64,000 nucleotides of DNA from Candidatus Latescibacterota bacterium (GTDB lineage: Bacteria; Krumholzibacteriota; Krumholzibacteriia; WVZY01; JAKEHA01): positions 2,464,001 through 2,528,000 of the forward strand of contig OY970173.1 in NCBI GenBank assembly GCA_963707635.1. Direction: 5' to 3'. Shown one piece after another: positions 31,960 to 60,834 of this stretch. A program made the position numbers and the translations under genes. The notes beneath the pieces are model-generated. The model was not told the origin of the DNA. It searched no databases and worked only from the letters and a program-made list of their open reading frames with translations. How positions within the stretch are numbered: position 1 is the first letter of the stretch; each line of letters opens with the position of its first letter.

Positions 31960-32232
31960 TCACGCCACGTCGTCCGGGGTCAGCAGCGTGATCGCGATTC
32001 GAATCAGCTCGTCGCGTGACACCTCGCGCCCGCGCTCGGCCAGCCGGGCCCGCACCGCGTCGATGTGCTTGAGCACGGCGGGTGTGAGCCGCACTACCAC
32101 CTCGACTTCCTTGGCGTCGGGTGAGAGCGGCGAGCGGCCGCGAATCAGCTTCGACACCGTGTCGGAGGCGGCTGCCTCCTTCGCGTCCTCGAACGGGTCG
32201 CGCCCCATCGATCGCTTGCGTCGTTCAGGCAC
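31960..32232 (-). CDS. Small ParA-partner protein, putative ribbon-helix-helix
   Basis: Overlaps the parA stop; basic N-terminus RRKRSMGRDPF; C-terminal VVVRLTPAVLKHID...VSRDELIRIAI. Confidence 0.65.
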   Translation of the reverse strand: MPERRKRSMGRDPFEDAKEAAASDTVSKLIRGRSPLSPDAKEVEVVVRLTPAVLKHIDAVRARLAERGREVSRDELIRIAITLLTPDDVA

Positions 32233-37215: not shown

Positions 37216-37217
37216 GG

Positions 37218-39101: not shown

Positions 39102-42100
39102 TTCGCCACCGCGATTCGGAACTTGGCCGACTTCGAGCCCGCGTTCAGCACGCACACGTAGACGCCGTTGCGCACGACTTCGCCCTGACCGTTGCGGCCG
39201 TCCCAGGTCGTCTCCTGCGGCCCGGCCTGGGCGCGCGCGTCGCCCGAGGGAATCGTCTCTTCGTACACCAGGTCCCCGGTCAGCGCATAGATCTTGAGCG
39301 AGACGTCCGCCGGAGCGTCGAGGAAGTACGCGATTCGCGTCGCCTGCGATCCGGCGCGGAACGGATTCGGATAATTGTGCGTGTACTCCTGGAAGTTCCC
39401 GCTCAACACCACCAGCGATTGCGAGGTGACCTGCCCGTCGAGCGGCTGTCCCTGCGCATCGGTCACCCCGAGCGGGAGCGTCGAGGCCGGGTCTCGAACC
39501 ACCAGGCCACCCGATCGCACTCCCACACGAATCTCCGTCTCGCGCGGCTGCGCGTCCAGATCCAGCGCCACCACCGCGTTGACCGACGCGTTGGGCGCGA
39601 TCGTGCGATCCGCGCCCCCACCCAGGAGCGAGACCACGATCGGGTTGGTGGCGGGACTGGTGACCACGTAGGGCTGCGCACCGCCGAGGTCGATCTGGAG
39701 CCGCGCGAGCGTCGCCCCCACCGAAGCGGCCGAGAGCGGCTGGCCGTTCTTGCCGATCACGGTGATCGCAATGGTGTCGATCTGGGCATCGTTCACGCTG
39801 GGGTCGCTCGCGTTGTACGCGATCTCGACGCCCAGGAGGGTCACGTCGGCCGCGCCCGCGGGCACCACGCCGGTATTGATCCCGAGACTCTGCGACACGT
39901 TGCGCACCGCCACCGCGGCGCCTTCGGTCACCATGGCGATATTCGCGGTCCCGTTCGCCACCTGGGCGGGAAGACCGCTGTTTTCGTCGGCGGGGACGGC
40001 GGAGATCGTCACCGCGATCTGGTCGGGCCCGGACGGCTGCAGCGCGGCGTTGACATCCCACGCCACCGGTGTGCCCACCACGAACGGCTTCGCGACGGTT
40101 TCTCCACCCGCGAGCGTGTACCCGGGCGGGAGGCCGATCGAGAGCTGCCCGCCGGCCGCCACGCCCGCCGCGCCGGCTGCATTGGTCACGTTCGCCGTGA
40201 CCGTGAACGGAACCCCCACGCCGACCGCGTTGTCCGTGGCCTCCGGTGGCGCGGTCACACTCGCCGCCACCGAGAGCGAGGCGCGCGGCACCGTCGTGAC
40301 GGCGACCGTGTCCGCGACGGAAGGCACCGGGTTCTGCGAGTTCTCGTCGATACCCGCGAAGGTCACGACCGCGTCCGCCGCGCTCGCCGGCAGGCCGGGC
40401 GCAATCACGCTATACGTCACCGACAACACGCCGCCAGTTCCGTCGCCAAGGTCCCGCACCGGCCCCCCACTCGTCACGATATACCCCGCGGGCAGTGCCA
40501 GCGTGGCGGTAACGTTGTCCGTCGTCGAGGTCGCGGTCACTGCCGCCCGCAACGAGAAGGTCTGGCCCACGCTCACCGTGTCGTCCACCGCACCCGCCGG
40601 ACTGGTCGCCGACAGGCTCGGAGCCGAGAGCGCGCCGCCCGTCGCCACCGTGATCGACACCTGGTCGTCCGGCTGCGACGAGAATGCCGGCGCCGCCAGA
40701 TTGACGTCGTCAGGCGTGGTCGTGAGCGTGCATGTGAAAGCGACGGCCGCCTGCGGCGCCGCCGGCGCGGTCACCGTCCAGTCGATCGCAACGCCCGCGC
40801 TAAACGCCTGCACGGGCGATTCCAGCACCGAGAACCCGGACGGGCTCGTCAGCTTCACGTCAGCCGCACCGGCGAGGCTCGCCTGACCCGCGTTCGTCAC
40901 CAGGCCCGTCACCGTGAAGGTCTGATTCGGGCTCACCACCCCGCCTACGGCGGAGCTGGTCAGCGACAACACCAGGTCGGCGCGTCGCTGCGTCACCACC
41001 AGGTAGGTGTTGTCGACCGGGGGCTGCGGAATCACCGGCTGCCCGGAGTTGTGCGACACCACCCCGGATAGGATCGAGGAAGTGAACGTCTCGAGCGCCG
41101 CGGGCGCCGCCGGTGCGGTCACGCGGAACACGAAGGTGTGGCTCTCGTCCACGGCGATCGACTGGCGGCGCAGGCTCGCGGGCGCGACGCTCGACGCGCC
41201 GTCCTTGGCCAGCGACACCCGCACACTGTCCACGTCCTCGCCGCTGTTCTGGACGGTCACGTGGATCTCGTACGCGAAGCCGGTATTGACCGTGTCGCGA
41301 TTGGCGGTCGCGTGGTTGAAGGTCCCGAAGCCGGTAGTCGCGAGAATCGCGAGGCCGGCGACCTCCTGCACGCGCACGGTGGTGGCCCCGGCGTCGGAGA
41401 GTGCGATCGTCGGGTCGTTGCGGTCGTTGCCGCGCGCCCCCAGTGCGATGTCGACCAGCCCGGTGTCGCTCCCGGTCACGATCACGCTGTATACGAGCGA
41501 GTCCACCGCGCCTCCCGGCAGGCGCCAGGCCGGCGCGCCCGAGCCGAACGCCGTCGGCGGCTGAACCACGTAGTCGATCTTCGTGGCTCCCGCGATGGAG
41601 AAGGCGACGTCGGCCGCGACCGGCGGCGTCAGGTCCGCGCTCGCCTGTCCCGTATTCCGGAGCGCCACGACGATGTTCCACGGGTTCGACTGTCCCTGGG
41701 TCACGGACGCCTGCGACGGCCGCACGCTGGTGATGTCGAGCACCGCCGGCGACTGGATCGCGACGGGTGCAGTCGCATCGAGGGGAGGATTGTTCAGCGC
41801 CACGAGGTTGCTCTGCGCCGAGTTCTCGTCAACGGCGGATACGAGCGTGGTCGTGAAGGTCTCCAGCGTCGACGACGTCGCCGACGCCGTCACCGGCCAG
41901 GCGTACGCCACGGTCTGCCCGGCGGCGACCTCCGCGATCGGAGACACCGGCTGTATCGTGCTGAGCCCATCCGTCGCCATGCCGACCACGACGTCGCGCG
42001 CGTCCGCCTGACCGGTGTTCTGCACCTGCAGGATCACGTCGAAGGCCTGGCTTTCGTTCACGGCGACCGGATTCGGGGCCGCGACGGTCGTGGTGGTGAT

Positions 42101-45100
42101 GCGCAGCTGCGCCAGCGTCTCCACCACGATCTGACCGTAACCCGTCGACGCAACCGTCGTCGCCGAGCCCGCCGTCTGCGAATTCGCCTCGATCCAGGGC
42201 ACGGTCGCGTCGATACGACGCGTGCCGGCCGTAGTCCCGGTGGTGTCGACTATAAAGAGCAGGCTGTCGACCGACCCGCCCTCGAGCACGGTACCTCCGC
42301 CCAGCAGCGCGGACGAGGCCACGAACGCCCATCCCGCCGGCGGGCCCGCAAAGGCGATCCCGGCGCTCGCCGCGGCGACATCGACGTCCGCGCCCCCGGT
42401 GTTCGCGAGCACGACCCGCACCGACCAGTCGGCTACCTGGCCCGCGGTCACGTCCGGTCGCGACGTGTGCGTCGCGACCACCGCCACCGCCGCCGGCGAC
42501 TGCACAACGACGCTCCCGCGCCCGCCGTCGAAGGTATTGTCGTTCACGATCGTGAGATGGTTCAGGTCGCGCCCTTCGACGCGCCCGCTGATCACGATGT
42601 TGCCGGTCCTCGTCCCGGTCTGGGTCACGAGAAACTCGATGGTGCCGGTCTCGAGGGAGTCCAGAATGTCGCTGGCGCCGCCTCTCATCACGGGCGGGCT
42701 GACCGTGTACGTGAGATCCGGCTGCGCGTCCGGCGCGATGAACGTGAGGAACGTCTCCGCCGGCGAAAGGTCGAGGTCGATGGGAGCGGCGCCGGTATTC
42801 ACGACCGTCATGGTCGCGGTCCAGTCCGCGGTCTGTCCGGCGGTGACGCTCGGCTGCGACACGACGATCTGCTGGATCGACAGCTGCGGCGGCACCTGAA
42901 CGGTGACACCGTTGGGCACGACTTCCGACTCGGTCATGTCGATCTCATTGGCGTTGTAGCCGAAGTCCACGTTGAAGGCGTAGGGGCCGAGCGGAATCCC
43001 CGATTCAACGACCTTGGGCTCGAACAGGAGTCTGACCGTCTCGCCGCCGCGAATCGAATCGGGGCTGCCGAGAGCCAGGAACGCGCTGAATTGGTTGGCC
43101 GCAAAATGGACGCGCGTCAGGCCGTGGTCGAGCACCGCCGTTGCCGCGTTGGGGTTCGCGTTCGCCACGTCGACCTCGAAGGGGACGACCGAGCCGCTCG
43201 TGACCCCGGACGGGTCTATGTCGACGACGGTCAGGTTCGGCGACGCCTGCACACGGATCGAGCCCGCGCCCGGCGACGACAGCACGCGGGTGCTGTTCGT
43301 CTCCACTGCCGACACGGAAATGTTGAGCGCCTTCACGCCGTAACTCGAAAACGTCCCGGTGTTGTTGGCGTGCGCGATCAATGTGCCCGAGCTGCCCCCC
43401 GCGAGAATGAGTCCACCCTCCTCCAGATCCGTCGGCTTTACGAACACCGTGGGGCCGCCATCGTCCTGGATGCCGATCGTGAACCCGGCTGGCAGCGTGA
43501 GGCGCGCGTCCGATTGTCCGGAGTTGTGCACCGCGACGGTCACGTCCCAACCGAACGCCGTGCCCGCGGTCACGGTGCTCTGCGACGGCGTGACCGAGTC
43601 GACGACGATGTCCGCCGGGGTCTGGAGCGTGATCGAGCCCGTCCCGCCGCTGCCCGTGTCGTCGATGACGATGGTCCCGGTATTGATCTCGCTGCCGGTC
43701 ACGGTCCCGCCGATGGTCGCCACGCCGGCGCCGCCCCCCGTCGTCGTGACCAGGAAGCGCAGCGTGTCGGTCTCTCCGCCGGTGAGCGTCGCGCCCGACG
43801 GCATGGTGGCGGGGTTGACCGCCCAGCCCGTCGTGCCCGGGAACGTGAGGAACGAGTTCGCCTGAAGCAGCGACACACCGACCGCCGCACCGCCGGTGTT
43901 GCGCACCGCCATCTTCACCGCGTACGACTTCGCCGTCTGTCCCACCGTCGCCGTGGTCTGCGCGGTGGTGATGCTCTCGATGCTCAGCGCACCCGGAAGC
44001 TGGAGGGCAAAGCTGCCGGTGCCGCCATCGCTGGTGTCGTCGGTGAGAATGTCGCTCGAATTGAGATCGGTGCCGCGCACGAACCCGTTGACGATGATCG
44101 TCCCGACGGTATTCCCGGCCCCCTGCATACTAAAGACGAGCGAGTCGATGGCGCCGCCGTTGAGTATGGTGTTGCCCGCGTCCTCGAGTGCGGTCGGCGA
44201 CACGATCGTGTACTCCGAAGTGACGGGGGCGCCCGTGCCCAGCACGTTCAGCCCGAGTTTCGTCACCGCCGGGTCGAGGTCGAGGTCGACCGCCGCCCCA
44301 CCCGTGTTCTGCACCACCATCGTCACCGTCCAGGGCACGGCCTGCCCCTGCGTCACCGTCGCGCGGCTCGATCGCACGCCCACGATACTCAAGCTGGGCG
44401 CGTTCTCAACCGTGATCGCGCCCCCAATCGGGATGGTGCGCGTGCCGGTGACGCCGTTTTGCGTCCAGTGCAACTCGAGCACCGCGTCGGCCTGACCTCC
44501 CGTCAGAATCCCAGCCCCCACCACGGCGCCCGTGAAGAGCAGCGTAACCTGCGCGTCGGCGGCCACGTCCACCGGGCTCGTCTGGGTCAGCCCCACGTTG
44601 AACTGGTTCGAACCGAAGCGCAGGCGCGACGTCGTGCGGTCGAGGGTCAGCGTCGCCCCGCTGGGCGTCACCGGGTTGCTCACGGTCACCGCGAAGGCGA
44701 CGGACGTCCCCTTCGACACGCTCCCCGGCGCCAGCGACACGTAGGCGGCATCCGGCGCCTGCTGGACGGTCACGCTGCCCGTGTCGAAATCGTTTCGCGC
44801 CACCCCCGAGTTGAGCTCGGTGCCGTCGACGTCGATAGTGATTGTTTTCGACCCGAACGAGCTGTATGCGCCCGCGGTGGTGAGCGGGATCAGGAGCTGA
44901 TCGGTTTCGCCCCCGGAGAGCAGCGTGCCGCCACCGACGAGCGAGGCCGGCACAATGTACGCGGGCGGGGTAGTCGCATTCTGGAAGACGACGCTGACCG
45001 CCGCCCCGAGATCCAGGTCGACATCCGACTGGCCGGTGTTGGTGAGTGTCGCGACGACCGCCCACGGCACACTGGTCCCGCTCGTGATCGTCGTCCGCGA

Positions 45101-48100
45101 CGGCGTGATACCCGACACGGCGATCAAGCCCTGCGACTGCACGAGCACGCTTCCCAGCCCCGAAGACGAGACGGACAGCGCGCGCGCACTGTTGCTCTCC
45201 ACACCCGCGGTGGCCACGTCGACCATGGTCGGCCCGGTCACGCTGCCCGACTGCGTCACGTCGAACACCATCGTGTCCACTTCGCCTCCGGAGAGCACCG
45301 TCCCGCCGCCCACGAGCGCGGGCCGCACAGTGGATACCCAGCCGGCCGCCGGCGAGAACACGAGCCGCGACGTGGGTCCGGCGAGCGTGAGCACGACGTC
45401 GCTCCCGCCGGTGTTACGCACCGCGGCGCGCACCTGGAACGTCTTGCTCATCCCCTGCGTCACCTTCGGCTGCGACGGAATCACGGCGTTGAACGTGACC
45501 GCCGCCGGAGACTGGACCAGCAGGTTGCCCTTGCCGCCGAGGTTGGTGTCGGCGAACAGCGGCTGGCTGGTGTTGACGTCCTCGACCTCGAGCGCGCCCT
45601 CGATGGTCATGTTCCCGACCGTGGTCGCGTTGCCGGTGTTGTCCGAGACGTTGAACACCACCGTGTCGACGTCGCTGCCGGTGAGCAGCGTCCCTCCGGA
45701 AAAGGCCGCCGGGGTGGAGACCACGAATTGATTGGTACGGTCGACGCCGGCGTGGATGAAGCGCAGCGTCGCGGCCGTGAAGGTGACGTTCGCCCCGCCG
45801 TTGTTGGCCACCACCATGCGCACCTTGATGGGCTTGCCCTGGTCCTGGGTGAACAGCGGCTGCGACGGGATCATGGAGAGGATGGCGATGTTCGGCGCGT
45901 CCTGGACCAGCACGTTGTCCGCGACTGTGATCAGCTGGCCGAAGGGGAGGCCGTTTTCGAAGCCATTCAACTGGACCTGCGGGACATATGACGCGCTCGC
46001 GATGGATCCGCTGACGGACGTGCCCAGGAATTGCAGCGTGGTGGTACCGGGCGGCAGCGACGTCGGACCCGACGGGTTGAGCGCCGCGGTGAAGGCGCCG
46101 GCGGCGAACCGGATCGTGGTCGTCGCCGGGGAGAGGTTCACGGTGGCAAGGCCGGTGTTCACGAGCTGGACGGTGAACGCGACCGTCGCGGTCTTGCTCA
46201 CCTGGTCCGGGTCCAGCGCGTCGCCGGCCGCCGACGCCACACTCGCCGGCGTCACGACCGACACCGGGCTGCCGGTGAGCAATACGGGCGGCCAGGTGGA
46301 TGGCGCGCCGTTCTCGGTGCCGTGGGCGTCGAGCGTCACCGGATACGAACCGGGCGTGAACGTCCCCGGCACCGCCCGCGGCCGGAACGTCATGGTCTGC
46401 ATCGCGTTCCCGCCGGCGATCGCGTAGTTCTGCGTGGGCGACGCGCTGAACGTGCGCACGCCATCGGTGAAGGTAAGGCGCGTCGTCGTGGAATCCAGGA
46501 ACGCGAGCCCGCCGCCGGTGTTCCGTATCGTCGCCTGGAATGCGTAGATCTTGCCGCGAGAGGCGACCACCGGCGTCAACGTGGACGGCTCATAGGCCAG
46601 GATGGCCGCGGCCACGACTTCAACGGTCGCGCGCGGGTAAGGCGCCACCGCCAGGTCGACCACGGACTGTCCCCCCACGGTGCCGGTCGCAGCAGCATCG
46701 ATGCTGTAGAAACCCAGCGTCGCTCCGGTCTGTACGGTCACCGGGACGTTGAACACGCCGGATGCGCCCGGGCCGAGCGCGAGCCCCAGCTCGGGAGCAT
46801 TGCCGACGATGAACAGACCGGCGGGAATGAAGGTCAAGTCGATGTCGTTGATGGTCGTGCTCTGGGCCCCGTCGTTCTTGACCGTGACGGCGATGCTCGT
46901 CCCATAGCCCCGGCTCACCTGCCCCGACGCCGGCACGATGCCAGTGATTTCGATGTTGGTGACGAGCAGCGAGAGCGCGGGGAGGCTGCAGGCCACGTTG
47001 ACGGGCGCGGTATTCGCGTCCGCGCCGATGAGCGTCGCCGTCGGCGCGTACTGGGCGGTCAGGAAGGCCGGGTCGATGGCGGCCGACGCGAAGGCGAGGA
47101 TCGCGTTGCCGCTGCCCGGCACCAGCTGCTGCGCGGCCAGATTGGCCGAGTAGCTGTGGGTCCCGTCCGTGAACGAAAACGTGGTCGCGGTCGTCAGGTT
47201 GACCGACGTCGGCGACGAGTTATTGACCACCACGCTGAACGCGACCGAACTCCCCGGCACCACGATGGCCGGTGTGGGCGGGGTGTTGCACACCAGCACG
47301 GGCGGCGGCGCGAACGTGATATCGATGGTCCCGCTCGCCGTCCCGGTGGCGCTGGTCATCGTCACCGTCGACACGCCCACCGTGGTGGACGAACGCAGGT
47401 CGAACGTGATGGTGCCATTCGCCGCGATCGTCTTCGGGCTTCCACCCACGATGAAGCCGCCGAGGTTGGCCGACACGTTCACCGACAGCCCCGCCGTTAC
47501 CTGGTTGGCAAACGCGTCTCGAATGACGCCGCTGGTGATGGTCGTGGTCGAGGTGCCGTTGGCCGTGATCGTGGTGCGGGTCGCGGTCGCCGTGATTGCC
47601 CCGGCGGGTGCGGCGGGAACGACCGTCACCGCTTCACCCAGCCCCGTCACCGAGGGGTTGCCGACGGTGGCGGCGCGCACCTGGTAGGTCTGCACCTGGG
47701 TCGCGGTGACGGTCGTGACCGCGACGCCGTTGGACAGAGTCAGCGGGTTGGTGCCGAACACCAGACCGACGCCGGGATCCCCGGAGAGTGCGACCTGCGT
47801 CGCGTCGTCGTCGACGGGGTTGTTGTTGATGTCGTATGCCGTGATGGTGGCGTTCTTCGAAACCCCCGCCGTCGTCGACGACGCATTCATGACGACGGTG
47901 TAGTAGGCGATTCCGCCCGCGACCGTGGTGACGTTGAAGGTCACGCGCTCGCGTGCGGCCGGGGTGCCGTCCAGAATCGTCGCGGCCACCGTGCTAGGCC
48001 CCGCGGTGGTGGACGTGTGCAGACGCGCGACCGCGCGGCCGTTGGCCGCCGACGCGGCGATACCATCCGTCGAGTCGCCCACCGAATCGCGCAGGAACCC

Positions 48101-51100
48101 GCTCGGCGCCGGCGACGACTGGACGAGATACCTCACCGCCTGGCCCGCGACCGGGTTGCCCCACTGGTCGCGCACTTCCGTGCGCAGCGGTTGAGTCACC
48201 CCCACCGGTATCGACGGTGGGCTCGATCCGGCCACGTAGACCACGCGATACGCGGGGCCGTTGGTGACGGTCACTGTCGGGCTGATCCCGGTGGGACCGC
48301 CGCCCTGCGTCTGCGCCCCGACGGTGAACGTCTCCGCGACGGTGTCGCGCACGGTGGTCACGAACTGACCGGCGGCGAGCGTGCCCGAGACCGCGCCCAG
48401 GGTGGCATTCCCGGTGTGCAACACGTCGATAACGGTCGAGTTGTCCTGTGTCCGGTAGTTGTTGTTGGCGTCGCGCGCCTTGATGGTCACCGAGGTCACC
48501 TGGTTGGCGACGAGCGCCGTCGACCCGGTCGTTATCTCGTAGCTCGCGATCGGACCCGCGACCGTACTCACCGTGAAGTTCACCGTCTCCAGGGCCGGCG
48601 GCGCCCCGTCGAGAATGGTCGCGCGCACCAGGTTGGTCCCCGATCACGGTCCCGGTGGTCAGCGTCGTCGACACGTCTCCGGCCGCGTTGGTCGTCCCCG
48701 ACGGCGGTGCCGGCGACCCGCCGCCCTGGGTGACCGCGAACGACACCAGCTGGCCGACGACCGGATTGCCGAACGGATCGAGCACGCGCGCCGTCAAGAG
48801 CCGCGTCGCCCCCGCCACGATCCCGCTCCCATCGCCCGCCACGTTGGTCACGCGGTAGGCGGCGGCGGGTTTGATCTTTACAATGTTGGAGTAGCCTTCG
48901 AAGCTGCCGGCGTCCCGCGCCCGCACGCGCATCAGCTCGGCCACGGTGTACGATTCGTTGACCACCACCGCGCCCGCCACCAGCGTCGCCTGCGTGACCG
49001 ACAGCGGATTCCCGGTGGGGGTCGTCGTGACGTCGTCGACCGCGGTGAGCGTCACCGAGTTGCCCGCCGACGTCACCTTGTTGTTGAAGGCGTCGCGCGC
49101 CTCGATCGAGACGTTGAACGCCGCGCCCGCGATCGCGCTGTCGGCGGCGATCACCGCATAGCTCGCCACCACGCCGGTGTGGGTGACGGTCACGACTCGC
49201 TAGGTCGCCGGTGAGCCCCGCGGCTGCCGCCGCGATATCCCAGCCCCCAGCCGTCGGTCCGCGGCCGTAGACCGTCCGCGAGCCGCCGATCAGGTTGAAC
49301 GTGGTCGTGCCGACGCCGAAGTCGGTGAGGCTGAAGACCAGCGAGCTGCCCGCCTCCGGCGTCAGCGTCACCAGGCTGGTGTTGCCCGTGTCGAGGTTGT
49401 CGCTGCCGTCCAGCGCCTCCACCTTGAACGAAAACGGACTGCCCCGCCGGCGCCGTGCTGGCCGACAGGAACGTGATCTTCAGGTGGGTCGCGCCGCTCG
49501 AGACGGTGTTCACCGCGAACGTCACGCGTTCGCGCGCGAGCGGCGAGCCGTCGAGAATCTGCGCGTTCACCTGGTTCGTCCCCGCGGTCAGCGCGGTGTG
49601 GTAGGTCACGAGCCCGCGCCCGGAGCCGTTGGTGACGACGATGCCGTCGTTGGGATCGCCGTCGGTGTCGGTGAACGACGGTGTGCCGTCCGGCGCCGAC
49701 GCCACGGAGAAGGTGGCGAGCGCGCCGGGGACCGGGTTGCCGTAGAGGTCGCGGACCTCCACCTCCAGCGGGCGCGTCGTCCCCGCGGTGACCCCGCTTC
49801 CGTCGCCGCTGATCTTCACCACGCGGTAGGTGCCCGCGTTGGAAACCGAGACGACCGCGCTGGTGCCGCTCGGCGGTCCCCCGCCCGACTTCTCGGCGGT
49901 GATGGTGAACGTCTGCACGACCGTGTCCCGCACGGTGGTGGCGAACACGCCGTTGGTCAGCACCCCGGTCGCGGCCCCGAACTGCGCGCTGCCGGTCGAC
50001 GAGAGCGTGACCGACGTCGTATTGTCCAGCGTGACGACGTTGTTGCCCGCGTCGTAGGCGGTGATCGTGAGCGGCACCGTCTCGCCCGCGAGCAGCGAGG
50101 TCTGCTGCGGCACCACCGTGAAGTAGGCGATGCCGCCGGCCACGGTCTGTCACGCTGAACTCGACCAGCTCGTCGCTGGGAGGAACGCCGTCGAGGATGG
50201 TCGCGCGCACGCGGTTGTCGCCGGCGACGAGACCGGTGGTGAGCGTGGTGGCGGCGGTCCCGCTCCCGTTGCGTGGCGATCGACGCCGGCAGCACCGACC
50301 CGCCACCCTGGAACGCGACGAATGACACCTGCTCCCCCGCGACCGGGTTGTCGTAGGCGTCGAGCACCTGCGCGGTGAGCACGCGGGTCGCGCCGGCCGC
50401 GACGCCGATGGCGTCGCCGGACACCTTGGCGATGCGCTTGGCGGCCGCGGCGGAAACCGTGACGATGCCGCTCGTCCCTTCCTTGCTCCCCGCGTCGCTG
50501 ACCTTGACGCGGATCGCTTCGGCCTTGGTGTACGACTCACCGACCGTCGCCTGACCGCCAGCCAGGGTCGCACCGGTAACGAGCAGCGTCGACTGGGCGG
50601 GCCCGGGATTGATGTCGTCGATCGCGGCCAGCGTGATCCCGTTCGACGCTCCCACCACCCGGTTGTTGTACTCGTCGCGCGCTTCGATCGAGACGTTGAA
50701 GGTCGCCCCGGCCACGACACTCGCGACGGTAGACACGGCGTAGTCGTCGACGAGGCCGGTGTCGGTGACGATCAAGGGTTCGGTATCCGCGCCCAGTCCG
50801 CCGCCGCTGGTGGTGACATCCCAGTTCCCCGCCAGCGTGCCGAGCGTGTAGACCGTGCGCGCGCCGGAGGCGAGTGTGACCTGGGTGACGGTCGCGCCGA
50901 AATCGGTGAGGCTGAATTGCAGCCCGCTGCCCGCTTCCGGGGTCAGCGTGACGATGGCCGCGTTGCCGGTGTCGACGTTGCCGGTGCCGTCGACGGCCTC
51001 GACCAGAAACTGTACGCTCTGCCCCGCGGGCCGGGTCGAGGGTCCGACGAAGGTGATGCGCAGATTGGTGGCGCCGCTCGCGGTGGTGGTGTAGGTCACG

Positions 51101-53668
51101 TCGCCGACCGACACTTGCGCCACGTTGGCAGTGAACGCGTCGAGCACGTCCGCCAGACGCCGCGCCGGGCGGCGCCTGATAGCGCACCGTGATGCGGCCG
51201 TGGCGTCGGAGTTCCCGCAGCGCGCGGTGGGTTGAGGTGGTGGTCGGGTTGCGGGTCGACCGGGTCTCGGATACCAGCGACCCGTCGGCCGCGTTCTTGA
51301 TGAAAATGTCGACGCGCTCGCCGCTCTTGACGTTGCCGAACGCGTCGGTGAGCGTCGCCGTCACCACTTCGAACGAACTCACCGTGACGCTCTTGCTGCC
51401 CGGCGTGATCACGAGGTTGGCGCCCGGGCCTGCCGTGCCCGTGGCCGTGAAGTCGACGCTGGGCGTGCTTCCGCTCGCGATCAGCGCGCGCAGGCGGTTG
51501 AGCCCCACGATCGTGCCCAGGCGCCAGACATCGCAGTCGATGGTTCCGTCGGCGATGGTGACGCCGGTGCTGTCGACGCCGCCTCCGGCGACCACATCCA
51601 CGGTGCCTCCGCCACCGACGGCGCGAAACGTGACGGTGGCGCCGGAGACGAGGTTATCGAAGGCGTCGCGCACGCGCACCTTCGGCAACACCGCGACCGG
51701 CGTGTTGACCGCCGCCGACTGTCCTGCGCCGGCGACGAGTTCCACCTTGTCCGCGCCGCCGCTGGACACGGTGATGACTTGCGACTGGCCGCTGGCGGCG
51801 CCCTGCACCGCGTTCAACTGAAACAACTCGGCGCGCGTATCGGTGACGCGAAGCGGCGCGACACCGTTGTCACCGGGAGCGAACGTATACGTCGCGTCGT
51901 CGCCTGAGAGATTGACGAGTGTTCCCTGCGCGAGCGGTGCCGCCCACTCGACCACACCATTGCCCACGCCGCCGCTCGTCGTCGAGAGATTCACGGTGCC
52001 GGTGTAGCTGGTGACGACGTGGCCCTGTGCGTCGAGCGCGGTGAGCGTGACCGGCTTGATGGTCCCCGCGATTGCGTTCCCGTCGGGCATCGACCACTGG
52101 AAGCTCGCGATCCCGCCCGCGGTGAAGTTCACCACCGCGGAGTCGGTTACCGCGGTGGCGCCGATCACCGCCTTGACGGTGCGCGTGCCGACGATGGTGG
52201 TCGCCAGGGTTCCTGTCGCCTGACCGCTCCCGTTGGTGACCCCGCCCGGCTGGGTCAGCGTGGCGCCGGCGGCCGGGATGGCGGAGAGCGTCACCGACTG
52301 GCCGGAGACCGGGTTGTTGTTCGCGTCCCGGGCCGTGACCGTGATGGTGCTGGTGGAGGTGCCGTTCGCCGTCACCGGGGTGGTTGCCGCGACCAGGCTC
52401 GCGCCCCCGCTCACCGGTCCCGGCTGGAACGTGACCTGCGCCGTCGGCGTGAGCGCCTGTCCGTTGATGGTCGCCGAGACCGTCACCAGCTGCGCCGTCG
52501 TGTTCGTCACCGACCCGATCGCGCGCCCGTCGGCGCCGGTGGCGCTGCCCGGGTCGGCCTTGTTGGCGTTGCCGGTCACCGCCAGCACGACCGTGTCGCC
52601 CGCCCGCGGGTTGGCAAACGCGTCTCTCGAGGTCACGGTGACGGTGCTCTGGCTGGTGCCGTTGGCGATGACCGGGCCGGTCGCGGAAATGGTCGACACC
52701 GTCGTGCTCAACGGGCCGGGTAGCACGGAGACGGTGGCCACACCGCCGAGCACCGGCGATCCGGAGGTGGTGAGCATGGTGAGCGAATGAGGTGTCCCGG
52801 TCGTCGCGAGTGTCGCCCGGTAGTCGACGCGCACCGAACTCTGCCCGGTGGAGATCACGATGCTCGTAATCGGCGTCGAGTGATTCCCGGGCGAGTAGTA
52901 CGAGCCGTGGGTCGAAAACAAGCCGATGGTGCGATTCGCCGGCACCGCGGTGCGGTTGCCGAAGGCGTCGCGCACGACGATCCGGTACGCGGCGAAGTCG
53001 CCCGCGGTCATGGTGGTGTCGCCGGGAGCCGGATCCAGCGACGACGGGGCGCCCGCGACGACCGTCAGCTGCGGTGAGGTCGCGATGGAGACCGGGGACG
53101 CGCCCGCCGGGTCGGACGCCACCAGAAAGACGTGCACGCCGGTCGCCGTCGCGGCACTCGCCCGCGCGACGGCGCCGCCGGCGTCGTCGCCGTAAATGAG
53201 CGTGAGTGTGTTGCCGGCCGTCAACGTATCGACGTCAATCGTGACGACCTGGCCCCCCACCGTGAGCAGCGGGTTGCCCGTGGGCTCGTTGGTGCCAATG
53301 CTAACGAACGCCTCGGAGGTGGAAGACGAGGTCTGGGGCGCGCTCCATCCGGAGGGAATCGTCACGCGCACGGTGCCGTCGGTGATCGTCTCGGCCGCCG
53401 TGTAGACGATGGTCCACTTTCCGGCCGCACCTGCGGGAACCGATGCCGGCGGCGATATCGTCGCCGTCCCGCTGCCGGGGCCGGCCAGCGCAGGAACAGC
53501 GGCCGCGACCCACGCCATCGAGAGCCCCGCCGCGAGTCCCCGAGAGCACGCGCGGGTGGCGCTGCGACGGGGTCCCCGCCGCGCGGAGCCGGCGGGGTGG
53601 CGCGGCGACAGGACCCGCGCTAGCGGCGACAGGCCCCGCGAAGCTGCTGCGAAAACAGGCATGCTCAT
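39098..53668 (-). CDS. Giant (~4,800 aa) Ig-repeat surface protein with C-terminal FlgD-Ig/T9SS-like domain; split by at least 6 apparent indels
   Basis: Continuous T/V/G/S-rich beta protein across ORFs 50537..53773, 49957..51147, 49368..50720, 49190..50143, 48580..49422, 47994..49193 and 39098..48628. Invasin Big_1-like DxxxNP motifs; CTD HNYPNPF...IYALTGDLV...WDGRNGQGEVVRNGVY. Confidence 0.85.
47930..51100 (-). repeat. Approximately 1.58-kb (about 525 aa) diverged tandem duplication within the giant gene
   Basis: TNLRITF...PAGQS...VEAVDG (near 51060) recurs as THLKITF...PAGQS...VEALDG (near 49490). RATILDG occurs near 50200 and 48620; ILDG..ARERVTF near 49550 and 47970. Confidence 0.75.
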
Positions 53669-54022: not shown

Positions 54023-54403
54023 TCAGGGGGCAATGGCGAGCACTTTCACGATCGAGTTCCGGCTGTTGAACCCGTCGGGTTCCGACAGCGGGTTGGCGGG
54101 ATCCGGGACCCAGTTCTTCCCGTCCACCACGAACTTGTACGCGTACGTTCCCGGCGACAGCGGGTAGTAGAGCGTCCACTCGCCGTCGGAGTTGTCATCC
54201 GCCATCGGATCGGCCGTCGGCGACCAGTCGTTGAAGTCGCCGACGACACAGACCTTCTTCGCGTCGGGATTGCGATAACGAAACAGCACTCCGCCTTCGA
54301 CCAGTTGCGGGCCGGCCGCCGGGGTCGGCGGCGGCGGTCCCCCGCACCCCGTACACAGGACAGCAACGAGGACCGCGGTCCCAACCCGGCGACGTGTCAT
54401 CAT
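54023..54403 (-). CDS. Lipoprotein with CBM48/AMPK-beta-like glycogen-binding domain
   Basis: Lipobox-like LCTGC; VVGDFNDW, PGTYAYKFVVDGKNWVPDPANP...DGFNSRNS. Confidence 0.88.
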   Translation of the reverse strand: MMTRRRVGTAVLVAVLCTGCGGPPPPTPAAGPQLVEGGVLFRYRNPDAKKVCVVGDFNDWSPTADPMADDNSDGEWTLYYPLSPGTYAYKFVVDGKNWVPDPANPLSEPDGFNSRNSIVKVLAIAP

Positions 54404-54831
54404 CGAACCTCCAGTTCTCCGCCGCGACCCACCAGCAGAATCTCCGACGCCCGGCCCGCCGGGCCCGCGTCCACCTCGGCGGGATTGCCGGGGTCGAGAC
54501 GCCACACCGCCTCGTCGAGCCAGAAGAGGTACTGGTACCTTCCCGGAGAGAGCGTGACGACGATGTCCCACACGCCGTCTCCGTCGTCGTCGCTCATCAG
54601 ACCGATGTCGGCCTCGCCCGCGGGACCGTCCCCCTTCGCCCAGTTGTTGCCGGGCCAGCTGCCCGCGAGCTGCACGCGGTGCGCGGTCGGCGCGAAGAAG
54701 CGGAAGCGGACTCCGTCGTGGGTCACCGCCGGCATCGGCGCGCGCGAGCGCGGGGCCAGCGACGCGCACGACACCGCGCCCGCGACGGCGAGAGCCACGA
54801 TCGCAATCCGTGCGCATTTGAATCGCTCCAT
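54400..54831 (-). CDS. Lipoprotein with CBM48-like domain
   Basis: Lipobox-like AVSC; VRFRFFAP, DDDGDGVW, PGRYQYLFWLD...WRLDPGNP. Confidence 0.82.
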   Translation of the reverse strand: MERFKCARIAIVALAVAGAVSCASLAPRSRAPMPAVTHDGVRFRFFAPTAHRVQLAGSWPGNNWAKGDGPAGEADIGLMSDDDGDGVWDIVVTLSPGRYQYLFWLDEAVWRLDPGNPAEVDAGPAGRASEILLVGRGGELEVR

Positions 54832-54842
54832 CGCCTTCGCTT

Positions 54843-56900
54843 CTAATCCAACTGAATGACGCATTCAAGCTTGATCGTGCCGAGATCTTCCAGCGACGTC
54901 TCCAGCCCGCGCAAGCTCTCGAGGAGCGGCGCCGCGTCGCTGCGCCGCACGCCGCTCTCGATGGTCCCGCGCAGGTACCCGGTCCGGCCGATGTCGGCGT
55001 AGTCCCCGACCACCGGGTCGAACACCACCGGGTCGAATCCGAATCCCAGGTTGAGCGAGACCCCGTCCCACGCGTAGCCCGCTTCCAGATAACCGTCCCA
55101 GTAGGAGGCCGCCGCCTGTGCCGGCGTGTCATCGTACCACGCCATTCTCGCGTCGGCTCGCGCAACCCAGCGCTGGCGGAGCGTGGTCTGAACGAACGCC
55201 CGCGCGCTCGCGTGCCGGACTTCCCCCGCCCACCCGCGCATCTGCACGCGCAGCGTCACCCCGGCCTCGGTCCGCCCGGAGTCCTTCTCCGCGGCGAAGG
55301 TGACCACGTCGTGCGACTCGAGGCCGAGACCGACGATCGAGGGCTCGTCGACCTCGTCCCAGAGTTGAAGCCACGGGTTGCGTTCCGGCCAGTCCGCATA
55401 CAGCGCATCTGGCGTGTCGCCGTAGCTGGCGTCGGTGTAGGTGAGCGTGGCGCGCAACGACCACCCGTGCCACGGGAGCGTGCCTTCGGCCACCACTCGC
55501 TGCACGTCGGCCCGCGACGACCCCTCGATGCCGTCGAAGTCGAAGCGCGTCCCGTCCCAGCGCAGCCGCACGCTTCCCCCCGCCACCGGGGCGGCCAGCT
55601 CGAAGAGCGCGCGCTTCGTGTCCATGATCGGCATGCGCGCGACCGCCGGCACCGCGTCCGCGCCGGGAGCAATCGTCGGCGGCAGCGTGCCCGTCACGGA
55701 TTCCGACGCAAACGCGTGCGCGTCGCAGTCCCCCTGGCCGTACGCGCCCGTGATGCGCAGCCCGTACACGTCGCGGGCGCGCAGCCACGCATTCGTCACG
55801 CGGCGATCCTCGCGGGTCGCGTACTCCGTGGTGGTGAACCCGGACGCGCCGCGCAGCACCGAAGCAAACACGCCGGGGTTGACCCCCAGGTCCTCCCGGC
55901 GCGTGACGCCGAGGTCGAAGCCGCCCAACGACGCGGTCGCGTCCAGCGCGAGGACGTCGGAATCGTCGAACGTGTACGCGTAGGTGTAGACCGTCGTGTC
56001 GGCGGCGGCGCCGGCCGCGAAGGACGCGAGCGCGGACGCCGGGATGGTGACCGCGGGACGCGGCGTGCGGGTGGTCTCGTCGGCGTAGAAGACGCGCAGC
56101 GACGCGTGCGACGCCGACGCCACCGCCGCGACGCCGTGGCGGCGGAACCCGGCGTCGTAGCCGAACACGCCCGCGTCCCCCACCAGCGCCATCGGATCGC
56201 TCGACGCCCACGTGGAGTCGTTCTCGAGGCCGCGCACGTCGATGCGTCCGAAATCGAGGTCGACGCGGCCGCGGTCGAAATACGCGTCGAGCGAGGGCGG
56301 CGACCACGTCCACGACGAATCGTCGGTCGCGACCCGCGCGCGCGCATCGAGGCGGGCGTACGACCCGTTCACTTCCGCGTCGACCCGCTGGGTCCCGTCC
56401 GCGTCGCCGTCGTCGACGCGGAGTGCCCCGATGTAGCGCAACCAGCCGTGCACATGCCGCGCGGGAGCGCCGGTTTCGCGGCGCTCGGTGTCCAGAATCA
56501 GCCCGCCGCTTCGCTCGATGAGCTTGATCGGAGAGCCCTTCTCGGCCGACCCCGGGTTGTCCGGGTCCGCGATCCAGTTCCCGTCGACGACGAACTTGTA
56601 CCGGTATTCACCCGCGACCAGGAACAGGCGCACCTCGAACTCCTCCCCGTTCGCGCGCATGCGCTCGACGGTCGGGTTCCAGAGGTTGAAGTCGCCCACC
56701 AGGTACACCTCCTGCGCGCCGGGCGCGCGCAGGGTGAAAACGACCTCGTCCTGCTCGACGCGAACGGCGGCGTGCGCCGGGAACGCGACAGCGGCGACGA
56801 CGGCGGCGCACAGCACTGCTAACCACGTGTGGCGCGCGCGTCGGGTATCCCCGCGAGCGGGGGCCCCTCCCGACACGCGCCCGCAAGTTCGCCGAATCAC
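54843..56900 (-). CDS. Exported CBM48 domain fused to a putative large beta-barrel
   Basis: Signal peptide ending AHA; VYLVGDFNLWN...GEYRYKFVVDGNWIADPDNP; long amphipathic-strand region. Confidence 0.72.
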   Translation of the reverse strand: MIRRTCGRVSGGAPARGDTRRARHTWLAVLCAAVVAAVAFPAHAAVRVEQDEVVFTLRAPGAQEVYLVGDFNLWNPTVERMRANGEEFEVRLFLVAGEYRYKFVVDGNWIADPDNPGSAEKGSPIKLIERSGGLILDTERRETGAPARHVHGWLRYIGALRVDDGDADGTQRVDAEVNGSYARLDARARVATDDSSWTWSPPSLDAYFDRGRVDLDFGRIDVRGLENDSTWASSDPMALVGDAGVFGYDAGFRRHGVAAVASASHASLRVFYADETTRTPRPAVTIPASALASFAAGAAADTTVYTYAYTFDDSDVLALDATASLGGFDLGVTRREDLGVNPGVFASVLRGASGFTTTEYATREDRRVTNAWLRARDVYGLRITGAYGQGDCDAHAFASESVTGTLPPTIAPGADAVPAVARMPIMDTKRALFELAAPVAGGSVRLRWDGTRFDFDGIEGSSRADVQRVVAEGTLPWHGWSLRATLTYTDASYGDTPDALYADWPERNPWLQLWDEVDEPSIVGLGLESHDVVTFAAEKDSGRTEAGVTLRVQMRGWAGEVRHASARAFVQTTLRQRWVARADARMAWYDDTPAQAAASYWDGYLEAGYAWDGVSLNLGFGFDPVVFDPVVGDYADIGRTGYLRGTIESGVRRSDAAPLLESLRGLETSLEDLGTIKLECVIQLD

Positions 56901-58372
56901 AGGTCCCCCCGCACGGAAAACGTGAGCACGCCGTCGCTGTCGGGGGCGGGCGCCCAGTCGTTCTCCTCGAGGAAGTACGGGTCGTCGCCCACGACGGCGC
57001 GGCCGTAGCCGAGGGTGAGCCAGGTGCGCCGCGTCGGACGGAACTCGAGGCGCGCGAATACCGCCTGCGTCCATGGCGGTGCATCGCGCACGATCCAGCG
57101 CAGGTAGAGCGCGCTGGTCGCGCTCCAGTTGACGCGGCCTTCCACGCCGGCCGAAGCGACGCTCGCGACGCCGATGCGGTCTACCATGGCGTCGACGCGG
57201 CCCGAAAAGCGCTGCAGCCCGCGTCCGTACCCGACGTGCACGAGGCCCGCGTCCTCACCGCCATCGGCGTCGTCGCGCGCCACACCCGCGCGCACCAGCA
57301 CGCCCGAGTTGTCGCGGAGCAACGCGTGCGCGGAGAGCTCGAGCGACCGTCGCGTCGCGTCGAAGAACTCGAAGCGGGTTTGCTCGCGCAGCGCGAGCCG
57401 CGCGTCGACCGCGTAGCGCCGGTGCGACCAATCCAGCCACGCCGCGCGGTCGACCGTCCCGGGGCGTCGCGACGAGAGATCGTCCACGTAGTCGGCGCCC
57501 GCCAGGTCATAGTGAAGCGTCGCCGTGATCCACCCGCTGGCGCCGACGCCGACGCGGTTCGCGCGCACCTCCGCAAACGTCGCCGAATTCTCCGGCGCGG
57601 CCGCGCGATACCCGGAACCCAGGTCGTCCCACGACGCGCCCGGGAAGAACATCCCGCTCCCGAACCCGGATTGCTCGTACGAGACCACCGCGGTCGCCCA
57701 GCGCGCGCAGGCCGATGCTTCGGCCTTCGCGATCGCGTGGTCGTCGCCCTGCTCGGGCGCGTTGTGGAGGTAGGAAAGCGAGGCGAATGCGTGCGAACCG
57801 GCATAGCGGGCGGCGCCGAGCTGAAGCACGCGGGTCGAAGGGCCCTCGTCGAGCCCGGCCGCCAGATACATCGCGCCGAAGTCGCCGCGCGAGCCGTCGA
57901 CGCGGATGCCGAGGCGGTGCGTGAAGCGTTCCACGCGGTCGTCGTCGACGATCGGGGTCCCGAGCTCGCCGGTGAAGAAGCGGCGCTCGTCGCCGAACGC
58001 GCAGGCTTCGATCGCGGTCCGGGAGGTGTCGCGCCACGCGTAGCGATACTCGCCCTGTGCGAGCCGAAACGCCACCCGGCCGAGCGCGTCGTCGGTCTGG
58101 TTCCACGACGCGACCCCCTTGAGGTAGAACCGGCCGCTGCGCTCGCCGCCGACCGTGGCGTCCGCCATGAAGCGCGACGAATCGGCGGGCGATCGTGACG
58201 CGAGATTCCACGCCGGCACCGCAGACTCGTCGGCAACCAGGCGGATGTCCAGCCGGGCACGCAGCGCCACCGGGACCGGGGAGCGCACGCCGATCGCATG
58301 CGCGCCCGATGCGAGCGCGCCCGACGCGAGCAGGATCGCGCCCGCGAGTCCCGTGCTAGCGCGACGAACCAT
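56897..58372 (-). CDS. Putative outer-membrane beta-barrel protein
   Basis: Signal peptide ending AHA; aromatic, alternating beta-strands; C-terminal LTLGYG...DDPY...LTFSVRGDL. Confidence 0.6.
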   Translation of the reverse strand: MVRRASTGLAGAILLASGALASGAHAIGVRSPVPVALRARLDIRLVADESAVPAWNLASRSPADSSRFMADATVGGERSGRFYLKGVASWNQTDDALGRVAFRLAQGEYRYAWRDTSRTAIEACAFGDERRFFTGELGTPIVDDDRVERFTHRLGIRVDGSRGDFGAMYLAAGLDEGPSTRVLQLGAARYAGSHAFASLSYLHNAPEQGDDHAIAKAEASACARWATAVVSYEQSGFGSGMFFPGASWDDLGSGYRAAAPENSATFAEVRANRVGVGASGWITATLHYDLAGADYVDDLSSRRPGTVDRAAWLDWSHRRYAVDARLALREQTRFEFFDATRRSLELSAHALLRDNSGVLVRAGVARDDADGGEDAGLVHVGYGRGLQRFSGRVDAMVDRIGVASVASAGVEGRVNWSATSALYLRWIVRDAPPWTQAVFARLEFRPTRRTWLTLGYGRAVVGDDPYFLEENDWAPAPDSDGVLTFSVRGDL

Positions 58373-59246
58373 AGGGGGTCACTTTCTGTGGCCGCGAGTA
58401 GCGCAACGTCACGGCATAGCTCGCTCCGAGCGTTTCGTGGCCGGTCATGCCCGCGTCGAAGGCGAACCCCTGCCACAGAATGCCAACGCCGATCGTCGCG
58501 CGGTTGGAATCCAGGCCGCCGCGCAGCGCCAGGTGGCGCTCGAGACGCAGCTCCGCGCCGCCCCGATTCCTCCACGCGCCGGTGGCGTCCTGACGCGTCT
58601 CGACCGTGACCACCAGGCGATCCTGCCAGTAGTACGCCAGGCCCACCGCCTGGGCGGATTCCAGCGCGGTCGATCCGCCGCCCGGGACGAGGTCGATGTC
58701 GGGCTGGTTGAGATTGCGAATCGAGTAACCGACTCCGATGAACGCGAATGGACGCAGCAGCACGCCGGCGCCGAAGGCGACCGCGGTGGCGGGGTCGGCC
58801 GCTTCGTCCCCGGCGGCGACACGCGCGAGGTCCACGGACGCGCCGACTGAGAGCGACGCGTCTTCGGACGTGCGCTTCACGTCGCAAGCCACCGCGACCG
58901 TCAGCAGGTCTTCGGAGTACGCGCCGGCGAGGCCGCGGTGAAACCACGACGCGCCCAGGTTCACGCCTGGCACCGGCACCGCCACGGCGAGGTAGCCGTC
59001 GTCGAGGCCGGTGACGCCGTACGGGCGCTGGTAGGTGGCGAGGAGAGAGAGCGTGGGCAGGCTGCACAGGCCGGCCGGGTTGTCGACGACCGCGGAGGCG
59101 TCGTCCGCGATGGCAACGAACGCCCCGCCGAGCGCTGCTGCCCGCGTGGACAGGAGCGGGCGTTCGAAGTGCGCCGACGCCGCCGGAGCCAGTCCCGCGG
59201 CGAACAGCGCGACCACCGCACCGATGCGACCACCCGCCGGTGTCAT
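58356..59246 (-). CDS. PorV-like beta-barrel protein
   Basis: RAAALGGAFVAIADDASAVVDNPAGL, RPYGVTGL, GAE...LRGG, HETLGASYAVTLRY. Confidence 0.78.
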   Translation of the reverse strand: MTPAGGRIGAVVALFAAGLAPAASAHFERPLLSTRAAALGGAFVAIADDASAVVDNPAGLCSLPTLSLLATYQRPYGVTGLDDGYLAVAVPVPGVNLGASWFHRGLAGAYSEDLLTVAVACDVKRTSEDASLSVGASVDLARVAAGDEAADPATAVAFGAGVLLRPFAFIGVGYSIRNLNQPDIDLVPGGGSTALESAQAVGLAYYWQDRLVVTVETRQDATGAWRNRGGAELRLERHLALRGGLDSNRATIGVGILWQGFAFDAGMTGHETLGASYAVTLRYSRPQKVTPYGSSR

Positions 59247-60352
59247 CGGACGACCGCGACTCCGATGCTCGCGCGCGCGCGGCTGCGCTCGGCGCCGCCG
59301 GTGAACTCCAGGTCGAACGTGGCCACGAATACGCCGCCGGGGACGATGCGCCCCTGCGCGTCGCGCCCGTCCCAGGTGATCGAGGCCTGCGGGGCGGGGC
59401 CGGCCAGTGCAACCGCAAACTCGCGGACTTCGCGGCCGTCCACCGAGAAGATCGTGCACGACCCCGAGACATCCTCGAACTCACCGGTGTGCGGGGCGAC
59501 GGTGAACGTCGCCGCCTCCGCGCGATCCGGCGCGAAGGCGCGCGTGTCCACGCGAACCCCGAGCGACTCTTTTCCCTGCGCGAGCGTCGCCTCCGTGCTG
59601 GTCTCGATGGCCGCCACCGCGCGCGGGGAGACGCCCGCGTCCGGACGACCGTCGGCGTCGGCGTCGGCGACGACCGCCAGCACGCGGTCGAGCCGCGCGC
59701 GCGCGAAGCGATCCGCTTCGGGCACGACGCGCGGATCCGGCGCCGCATCGCCGCTGCCGGTGCCCACGCCGCCGGTGATCGCACTCACCAGCCGCACCGG
59801 GCTCTCGAGGGAGAGGCGCGCCCACGGGATCGCCAACTCGAAACCGGCGCGGCCGTCGATGCTGGATTGCACCGCCGCCGGGAGCGTCGCCCGGTCCACC
59901 AGCGCGAACGGGTGGGACGCGTCGACCATCGCGACGCTGGGCGCCGCGTGGGGAGCGGCGAGCGCGATCAGGTTGGGTCGAATGCCGGGAAGGTCGATCG
60001 CCCGCCGAAACGAACCGGCGCCGTCGAGCTCGCTCAACCCGCCCGCCGTGGCGGCGAGGAACACGGCGGCGTATTCGCCGCGCGAACGAAAGTCGACGGC
60101 GAGATACAGGAACTCCGCGTCCCAGGTGAGTGCCACGCGGGCCAGATCGCGGTCGCTGCCCCAGCGTGAATCGGTGTCGCTCTCCGGAAACGTGCTGGTG
60201 GAGTCGAGCACCCACTCGTCCGCCGCGTACTCGTCGAGGACACCGTCGATGGAAATGCGGTCGCGAAGCGAGGTCGCGGTGGTGGGGTGGACCGCGGTGG
60301 GGGCGAGCGAGGCGAGGAGAGCGAGGCAGCCCGCGCGGCGCCGCAGCTTCAC
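59243..60352 (-). CDS. Secreted CBM9/DOMON-like protein with C-terminal FlgD-Ig/T9SS-like domain
   Basis: ISIDGVLDEY, TWDAEFLYLAV, FELAIPW; CTD FAPD...IFSVDGREV...WDGRDAQGRIVPGGVFV. Confidence 0.75.
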   Translation of the reverse strand: MKLRRRAGCLALLASLAPTAVHPTTATSLRDRISIDGVLDEYAADEWVLDSTSTFPESDTDSRWGSDRDLARVALTWDAEFLYLAVDFRSRGEYAAVFLAATAGGLSELDGAGSFRRAIDLPGIRPNLIALAAPHAAPSVAMVDASHPFALVDRATLPAAVQSSIDGRAGFELAIPWARLSLESPVRLVSAITGGVGTGSGDAAPDPRVVPEADRFARARLDRVLAVVADADADGRPDAGVSPRAVAAIETSTEATLAQGKESLGVRVDTRAFAPDRAEAATFTVAPHTGEFEDVSGSCTIFSVDGREVREFAVALAGPAPQASITWDGRDAQGRIVPGGVFVATFDLEFTGGAERSRARASIGVAVVR

Positions 60353-60834
60353 CGGGTCGCTCCCTCTTCGTCCAGTCGCTTGAGGCCCTCGAGGATCAGG
60401 TGGTCGAGCGGGATGTCGATGAACACGTCCTGCGTCTTCGGCTTGCGCCCGTAGGTGAAGCGAAACTTACCCGTGCGCCAGCGGACGACTTCGTACACGA
60501 CTTCCTTGATCTGCTCTTCGATCGCCCGCCGCAGCGTGAGCGCGTCGATGGCCCCCATCTCCACGAGCACCGTCCCCAGCCGCGTCCGCTCTTCCTTCAT
60601 CTCCAGCGCGCGTTCCAGGTGCTCGCGGGTGATGAACCGCTGCGCCACCAGATACTCGCCCAGCTTGACCCGCCGGTTGGTGATCTCCGCGTAGGTCACG
60701 CTCCCCTCGTCGAAAAACACGCGGGCAGTGCTGGGGCCGTGTTCGAGCGCCAGCTCGCCGGTGCTCTGCGCGAGATTGATCAGTTGCAGGACCGAAATGG
60801 GTCCGAAGATCGCGAGATTACCGCGCAAGTCCAC
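60349..60834 (-). CDS. DUF4388 (PatA_N-like) protein with MshEN-like c-di-GMP-binding motifs
   Basis: LRGNL...LQLI...TGEL; KLGEYLVAQRFITREHLERAL and RLGTVLVEMGAI...LRRAIEEQ; W..GKFRF. Confidence 0.82.
   Translation of the reverse strand: MDLRGNLAIFGPISVLQLINLAQSTGELALEHGPSTARVFFDEGSVTYAEITNRRVKLGEYLVAQRFITREHLERALEMKEERTRLGTVLVEMGAIDALTLRRAIEEQIKEVVYEVVRWRTGKFRFTYGRKPKTQDVFIDIPLDHLILEGLKRLDEEGATR

Follow-up and report, generated by a model that had tools for sequence, protein, structure and literature searches.

Does a cluster of genes for CBM48 domains and outer-membrane β-barrels bring α-glucan into the cell as food, or has it come to serve another purpose? This question is raised by a six-gene cassette on the minus strand, at positions 54023..60352 of a 64,000-nucleotide stretch of Candidatus Latescibacterota DNA (hereafter the window), whose host genome, G000, is a single contig of 3.2 Mb and 96% complete. 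By the names of its homologues, G000 belongs to the phylum Krumholzibacteriota. The preliminary description of this DNA had proposed an apparatus for the non-Sus capture and uptake of α-glucan. The present analysis gives about even credence to the reading that the six genes form one outer-membrane gated channel, which would have evolved from a machine for maltodextrin uptake and, in the present lineage, been repurposed away from starch feeding.

Organization of the cassette

Six minus-strand open reading frames, A to F, with codon use of the coding type, occupy the region. Start and stop codons overlap at the A/B, B/C, C/D and E/F junctions, D and E are 11 nt apart, and the order of the genes is kept across the class, which indicates that the cluster is not a product of chance. 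The tight coupling of six envelope genes described earlier, and the conservation of the cluster, which had been set as a test beforehand, are both confirmed by these observations. Signal peptides of A to D were assigned by eye. E (54831-54400, 143 aa) and F (54403-54023, 126 aa) each have a lipobox by a strict pattern, which also finds one in 41 of 51 homologues; the remaining homologues mostly show a cysteine that follows a hydrophobic run. A promoter scan of the region returned 0 sites and the terminator count was at the level of shuffled sequence, both being uninformative. Contigs from two DNA runs match parts of the region, as relatives only.

Two paralogous types of the locus

Barrel C was detected in 119 of 151 genomes of the phylum, a single sample that served for the counts of both C and full GH13 (E 1e-30 or better). 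The 53 C loci read, chosen to cover all families and the genomes with two copies, comprise 22 loci of type I, 30 of type II and one that is cut too short to be assigned. Type I loci occur with GH13 (bearing three CBM48 domains), GH133, GH57, sugar ATP-binding cassette (ABC) genes or a long form of A. Type II loci, to which the window copy belongs, lie after the genes for pyruvate phosphate dikinase (PPDK) and/or a DUF4388 protein, and often before that of a giant immunoglobulin (Ig)-repeat protein. Each type makes up one side of a branch with an SH-aLRT of 93 in a quick, unrooted tree. Both types are present in G043, G091, G093, G092, G067 and G097, the type I copies of the last two being cut by contig ends (in G097, after C).

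Kin genomes are not independent, and the co-occurrence with GH13 is given as raw counts. Full GH13 is present in 48 of the 49 C-positive genomes of families f3, f6 and f7, and in 1 of 5 genomes of f4. Within f5, f8 and f9 it was found in 10 of 12 genomes with two copies, but in only 1 of 28 with a single copy. The order to which the window belongs has C in 24 of 25 genomes and full GH13 in none of the 25. The check for synteny with GH13, GH57 and sugar ABC genes in relatives gave the same division, as glycoside hydrolases (GH) stand beside the cassette at type I loci, but not beside the window copy or at any further type II locus that was read. The GH13, GH133, GH57 and sugar ABC context, the tracking of GH13 and the intact CBM48 sites described below provide good indirect evidence, drawn from sequence, that type I serves the uptake of maltodextrin by a route other than Sus.

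Sugar-binding residues of the CBM48 domains

D, E and F score above the curated cut-off for CBM48/AMPK1_CBM and, together with the lipobox of the last two, this supports the earlier claim of two stand-alone CBM48 lipoproteins. In AMPK-beta, the residues W100, K126, W133 and N150 are described as critical for sugar in PMC4032982, and these positions were transferred to the CBM48 domains of the cassette via PDB alignment. By this alignment, F of the window copy has the full set of four AMPK-beta-type sugar residues, W/K/W/N; E, which carries a conserved inserted loop, has the degenerate site W/L/W/A, and D has W/K/W/G, the asparagine being lost. The test of sugar-binding residues that had been set beforehand thus gave a divided answer, the residues being all retained in F but in part lost in E and in the CBM48 of D.

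The same division extends to the relatives. W/K/W/N is intact in 47 of the 48 CBM48 domains of type I; the remaining domain is truncated where its contig ends. Among type II loci the site is intact in 23 of 24 F proteins, 0 of 29 E proteins and 5 of 31 D proteins, where five f4 E proteins that a length rule had put as F-type are counted as E by hand. All five intact D sites belong to f4, where no F was seen, and at least one intact site is kept in 28 of 31 type II loci. F is intact in all 6 copies read from genomes without a match for GH13, GH57, GH133 or GT5. A literature search turned up no paper on an arabinoxylan-binding CBM48.

α-Glucan enzymes of the host genome

No match was obtained in G000 for GH13, GH15, GH31, GH57, GH65, GH77, GH97, GH133, phosphorylase or glycogen synthase (GT5), the positive controls having matched in each enzyme-family search; GH4, GH119 and GH126, for example, were not searched. 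SusD (PF07980), likewise searched with a control that matched, gave no match in G000 either. Of the 31 own-order genomes with D, 17 have no match for GH13, GH57, GH133 or GT5, and 9 of these 17 are at least 90% complete. The only permease of G000 that matches the sugar ABC of type I lies at L061:5328-13419 (G000:C1:2717327-2725418), in a different context, beside genes that we take, from labels given by eye, to encode MurQ, AnmK, a SpoIID-like protein and GH3. This context suggests that the sugar ABC of G000 serves the recycling or scavenging of peptidoglycan.

The absence of a match for ten enzyme families, the peptidoglycan context of the ABC genes and the loss of residues in E and D undercut the import of α-glucan as food by the window copy. 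The non-Sus α-glucan uptake apparatus proposed earlier is supported in part, as an undescribed envelope system descended from α-glucan uptake, for which the type I loci and their intact sites speak, but less so as a feeding device in its present copy.

The barrels C and D

C (58372-56897, 491 aa) is predicted to be an outer-membrane barrel of 24 strands; it has no plug domain and belongs to no recognised family. D (56900-54843, 685 aa from an overlapping GTG; 657 aa from a later start in a database call) is a CBM48 fused to a predicted 22-strand barrel, which is homologous to C (hhalign probability 94, E 1e-7). The modelling of both with AlphaFold2 was in agreement with the barrel and the CBM48-barrel fusion named earlier: the model of C has 24 strands and no extra domain, with a predicted local distance difference test (pLDDT) score of 93.5, and that of D has the CBM48 followed by 22 strands, with a pLDDT of 92.6. 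Strand counts were taken by hand from DSSP lists of the predicted models. A TonB plug is absent from both models, and neither Pfam nor NCBIfam gave a match to a TonB-dependent transporter (TBDT) profile. A Pfam-type scan of all six genes also revealed no SusC plug, SusD or GH domain, as had been stated before. The matches to PF00593 in G000 lie elsewhere than in the cassette.

The Pfam search of 34 C homologues gave no match except one at E 0.05, and a sequence search with the C profile against solved structures gave nothing up to E 10. With Foldseek, the best matches of C are the 24-strand FimD/PapC ushers, at a template-modelling (TM) score of about 0.5 for FimD (0.54 at most), a root-mean-square deviation (rmsd) of about 12 Å and 8-9% identity, and those of D reach a TM of 0.42 or less; as judged from the predicted models, this likeness of C and D to known barrels is generic only. 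In VIA-align comparisons of D, TonB-dependent barrels tie with porins (Z 15-16, rmsd about 5 Å, 6-12% identity), the top matches being FptA and a chain that resembles SusC (Z 15.8, rmsd about 5 Å, 6-10% identity). The C profile has 242 representatives among 1.8 billion proteins, and the nearest Atlas clusters are unnamed and mostly from Cloacimonadota and Eisenbacteria, one member being named Cloacimonadota. Type II D proteins have, at their start, a DEV motif that resembles a TonB box; it belongs to the fold of the CBM48 and was given no weight.

The surface protein A and the barrel B

A (60352-59243, 369 aa) has a putative signal peptide, an uncharacterised N-domain and a FlgD-like, putative type IX secretion system (T9SS) tail that ends in AVVR. 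A itself has no Pfam match. FlgD_ig matches the tail in 12 of 20 homologues and CHU_C, weakly, in 1 of 20; the tail of A gave a weak match to the PorU tail and was below cut-off for the models of type A and type B C-terminal domains (CTD). The preliminary description had called A a CBM9/DOMON-like CTD protein, of which the tail may be reflected in the FlgD_ig matches; the CBM9/DOMON label of the N-domain found no confirmation in any library. A aligns to the N-terminal 220 residues of a protein of 1650-2090 aa in type I loci (hhalign probability 99.6), which adds Ig domains and Glucodextran_C, and by this profile comparison A is the short form of that surface protein.

B (59246-58356, 296 aa) is a PorV/PorP-like barrel. 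The term PorV-like, used for it earlier, holds in part: the match to NF033709 PorV/PorQ is partial (E 8e-9 over 40 aa) and below cut-off. The best PDB match is PorV at E 0.007, and PF11751, of the PorP type, was found in 2 of 33 homologues, B scoring nearer to PorV/FadL than to PorP. SprA is present in G000 (TIGR04189 over cut-off), and 5 of the 10 PorV-like genes of G000, as read by eye, follow a gene with a similar tail.

In Bacteroidota, pairs of a T9SS type B CTD cargo gene and its cognate PorP/SprF shuttle gene are documented in PMC12618676 and PMC9143113. On the analogy of these pairs, which have the same layout, B is likely to be the dedicated shuttle and anchor of A. The likeness lies in a tail-bearing gene followed by a small barrel gene and in the presence of SprA in the genome, whereas B is nearer to PorV/FadL, CHU_C is nearly absent from A homologues and the present host stands outside Bacteroidota. 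The resemblance of the cassette to such systems is confined to A and B, of which A is likely to be a secreted surface protein and B its predicted anchor.

Proposed mechanism and alternative explanations

In the gated channel that we favour, C and D would combine into a paired pore. The lipoprotein E and the CBM48 that D carries, which have lost their sugar contacts and are retained throughout, would shut or support the wide lumens on the periplasmic side, by analogy to LptE in LptD. F, with its one intact site, would bind a short α-1,4-glucan and thereby gate the pore or report the ligand, and A, exported by the T9SS, would be anchored to B and form a reduced cap at the surface. Type I would use this layout, with intact sites throughout and a long, glucan-binding A, to capture maltodextrin and hand it on to a GH13 enzyme and a sugar ABC importer.

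Several points weigh against this reading. A to F are a presumed operon, as judged from gene overlaps only. No source or fate of α-glucan was identified in G000, so that the retained site of F could serve something else. No intact site remains in 3 of 31 type II loci, of which the first is without F, the second is without both E and F, and the third has an F that has drifted. In each of the 11 type II loci of f5, f8 and f9, as well as in L024, A is missing or reduced, which indicates that it is dispensable.

It is unlikely that the window copy still imports α-glucan as food via an unrecognised enzyme. The candidate would be a putatively exported protein of 912 aa (L041:10350-13088; G000:C1:1760349-1763087), which bears the sole other CBM48 found in G000 and a weak six-hairpin-like domain. 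MGH1-like_GH matched weakly in 19 of its 25 homologues, and with the query used it was found in 35 of 35 own-order relatives and in 0 of 5 genomes each of f3 and f6; these findings, the ROK sugar kinase of G000 and the intact site of F are in accord with feeding. However, no acidic residue of its N-domain is invariant in the homologue alignment, no profile match was obtained against five GH133 proteins, and its CBM48, partly degenerate and C-terminal, is without the second tryptophan in 25 of 25. The gene has a conserved place amid genes of fatty-acid degradation, with no linkage to the cassette, and occurs also in f7, where type I alone was seen; the type I-like sugar permease of G000 has the different context noted above. 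Owing to the missing invariant acids and the lost tryptophan, the 912-aa protein was not accepted as the missing glucan enzyme. That type II has been fully repurposed, as a wide channel through which solutes other than glucan would pass (peptides or fragments of the cell wall, for example) and in which every CBM48 is a structural plug only, is considered rather unlikely. The 17 own-order genomes without the four enzyme families agree with it, as do the long type II branches of the quick tree and the aromatics in the lumen of C, which number 23 in type I and 15, 13 and 9 in groups of type II by a rough count with guessed strand parity. The same rough count gives no such drop for D, and the four sugar residues persist in F, even in genomes without the enzymes, while E and D drift.

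For type II, a role in export or anchoring in place of import, as a platform that serves either a polymer or the giant Ig-repeat surface protein next to it, is decidedly improbable. The usher matches of C, the giant protein that follows many type II loci and one neighbouring Atlas cluster, automatically named EPS-associated barrel, point in this direction, but the usher match is generic and the model of C has no usher plug or periplasmic domains. Moreover, the window encodes a separate PorV-like partner for the giant protein, which was not seen beside f4 loci, and no glycosyltransferase or flippase is linked. A cassette in decay, left over from starch use, is barely credible; the lost binding residues, the shortened A and the long branches would fit decay, but the frames are intact in the window, 31 of 36 own-order genomes have D, C is present in 33 of 33 genomes of f5, and many positions are invariant within type II. 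The scaffolding of glucan, offered as an alternative in the preliminary description, may also be a function of this copy.

Comparison with known systems

The starch utilisation system (Sus) of Bacteroidota consists of SusC/SusD with SusE/F/G. The cassette resembles it in having an outer-membrane barrel, lipoproteins of the glucan-binding type and a surface protein and, in type I, GH13 and debranching genes. It differs from Sus in that it has no SusD and no plug domain, its two paralogous barrels are unrelated to SusC, a T9SS-anchored surface protein takes the place of surface lipoprotein lids and type I employs a sugar ABC importer; the window copy also has no starch enzyme, linked or genomic, among the families searched. 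Likeness to TonB-dependent transporters is limited to the 22 predicted strands of D and its VIA-align matches, which are tied with porins, whereas in D a CBM48 takes the place expected for the plug, C is predicted at 24 strands and lacks an N-domain, and no TBDT profile matched. TonB/ExbB/ExbD-like genes, as read by eye, lie elsewhere in G000.

LptD/LptE and the FimD/PapC ushers are large plugged barrels. They share with the cassette a large barrel that needs closure and lipoproteins encoded alongside, with 24 strands as in ushers, but the similarity of the barrels is generic only (TM 0.54 or less, rmsd over 10 Å), the model of C is a barrel only, and there is no chaperone or pilin gene in the six-gene cassette. 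The LamB maltoporin family has 18 strands. The proposed passage of α-glucan through the outer membrane is common to LamB and the cassette, unlike the 22 and 24 predicted strands, the CBM48 partners and the sequences, for which no Pfam match to the 34 C homologues was obtained. The cassette departs from Sus, maltoporin and usher in the features that define them, and has no TBDT plug. No description of it was found in a literature search that had most subscription papers outside its reach.

Neighbouring genes and other observations

The DUF4388 gene (60349..60834, minus strand), which marks type II loci and encodes a cyclic di-GMP (c-di-GMP) motif of the MshE type, overlaps the start of A. It is followed upstream by the genes for a CDP-alcohol phosphatidyltransferase (60844-61722, minus strand) and PPDK (61759 to the window end at 64000, minus strand), both conserved upstream context of type II.

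On the other side, also on the minus strand, the giant Ig-repeat protein with a T9SS tail, together with its own PorV-TPR gene, takes up 37218..53662 in several frames and lies downstream of many type II loci. The giant gene itself, of the Ig/invasin-repeat type, spans 39098-53662 in at least 4 frames. A genome of the same genus has an open frame of 5062 codons at this position, and contigs of a relative are without single bases at 49435 and 50150; assembly indels are thus likely in the giant gene. Downstream of the giant protein, 29901-39101 (minus strand) is taken up by a partner-switching cluster, in which the PorV-TPR gene is joined by an RsbW-HAMP-SpoIIE-HTH-3xSTAS fusion of 1419 aa, ParA, a TPR protein whose N-domain is weakly RomY-like, and two STAS genes. 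At 25733-29793 (minus strand) are a protein with a lamin tail and a FlgD tail and its neighbour of 728 aa, both of which also follow the cassette in f4 genomes. Beside one f4 cassette, a DUF362 gene (L032:5686-8388) contains an intein bearing a LAGLIDADG domain.

In a minority of own-order genomes there is a patchy GH57/GH13 cluster (L127-L129) without linkage to the cassette, which in L127 includes a CBM48 that stands alone. ParA-like ATPases of about 355 aa overlap CBM48 matches in many relatives (L117-L127; e.g. L121:5122-6195 and L118:4656-5732), and P0083 shows the fusion. These ParA-CBM48 proteins are candidates for the positioning of glycogen granules, yet they occur also in genomes without a match for glycogen synthase; none was found in G000.

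Significance

The known outer-membrane routes for sugar chains are porins such as LamB and TonB-dependent SusC/SusD pairs, and the cassette, which is present in most sampled genomes of an uncultured phylum, fits neither. Proteins like C are also named from Cloacimonadota and Eisenbacteria. A broader proposal, which we regard as possible with the doubts outweighing, is that of a hetero-paired 22/24-strand channel, gated by CBM48 plugs and carrying a T9SS-anchored cap, without TonB plug or SusD. It would import maltodextrins in type I and, after duplication, would have become a core envelope machine of type II lineages, where the one retained α-glucan site may serve opening or signalling for another purpose, possibly tied to the adjacent protein with the c-di-GMP motif and the giant surface protein.

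The annotation of CBM48 alone would wrongly call these organisms starch degraders. All parts of the cassette are small enough to be expressed and tested, and the paralogues offer a natural experiment within the same genomes, in which a copy with all sites and starch enzymes can be set against one with a single site and none. Taken from sequence, the cassette is a probable new class of outer-membrane transporter, with a contrast between its two paralogues that can be put to the test.

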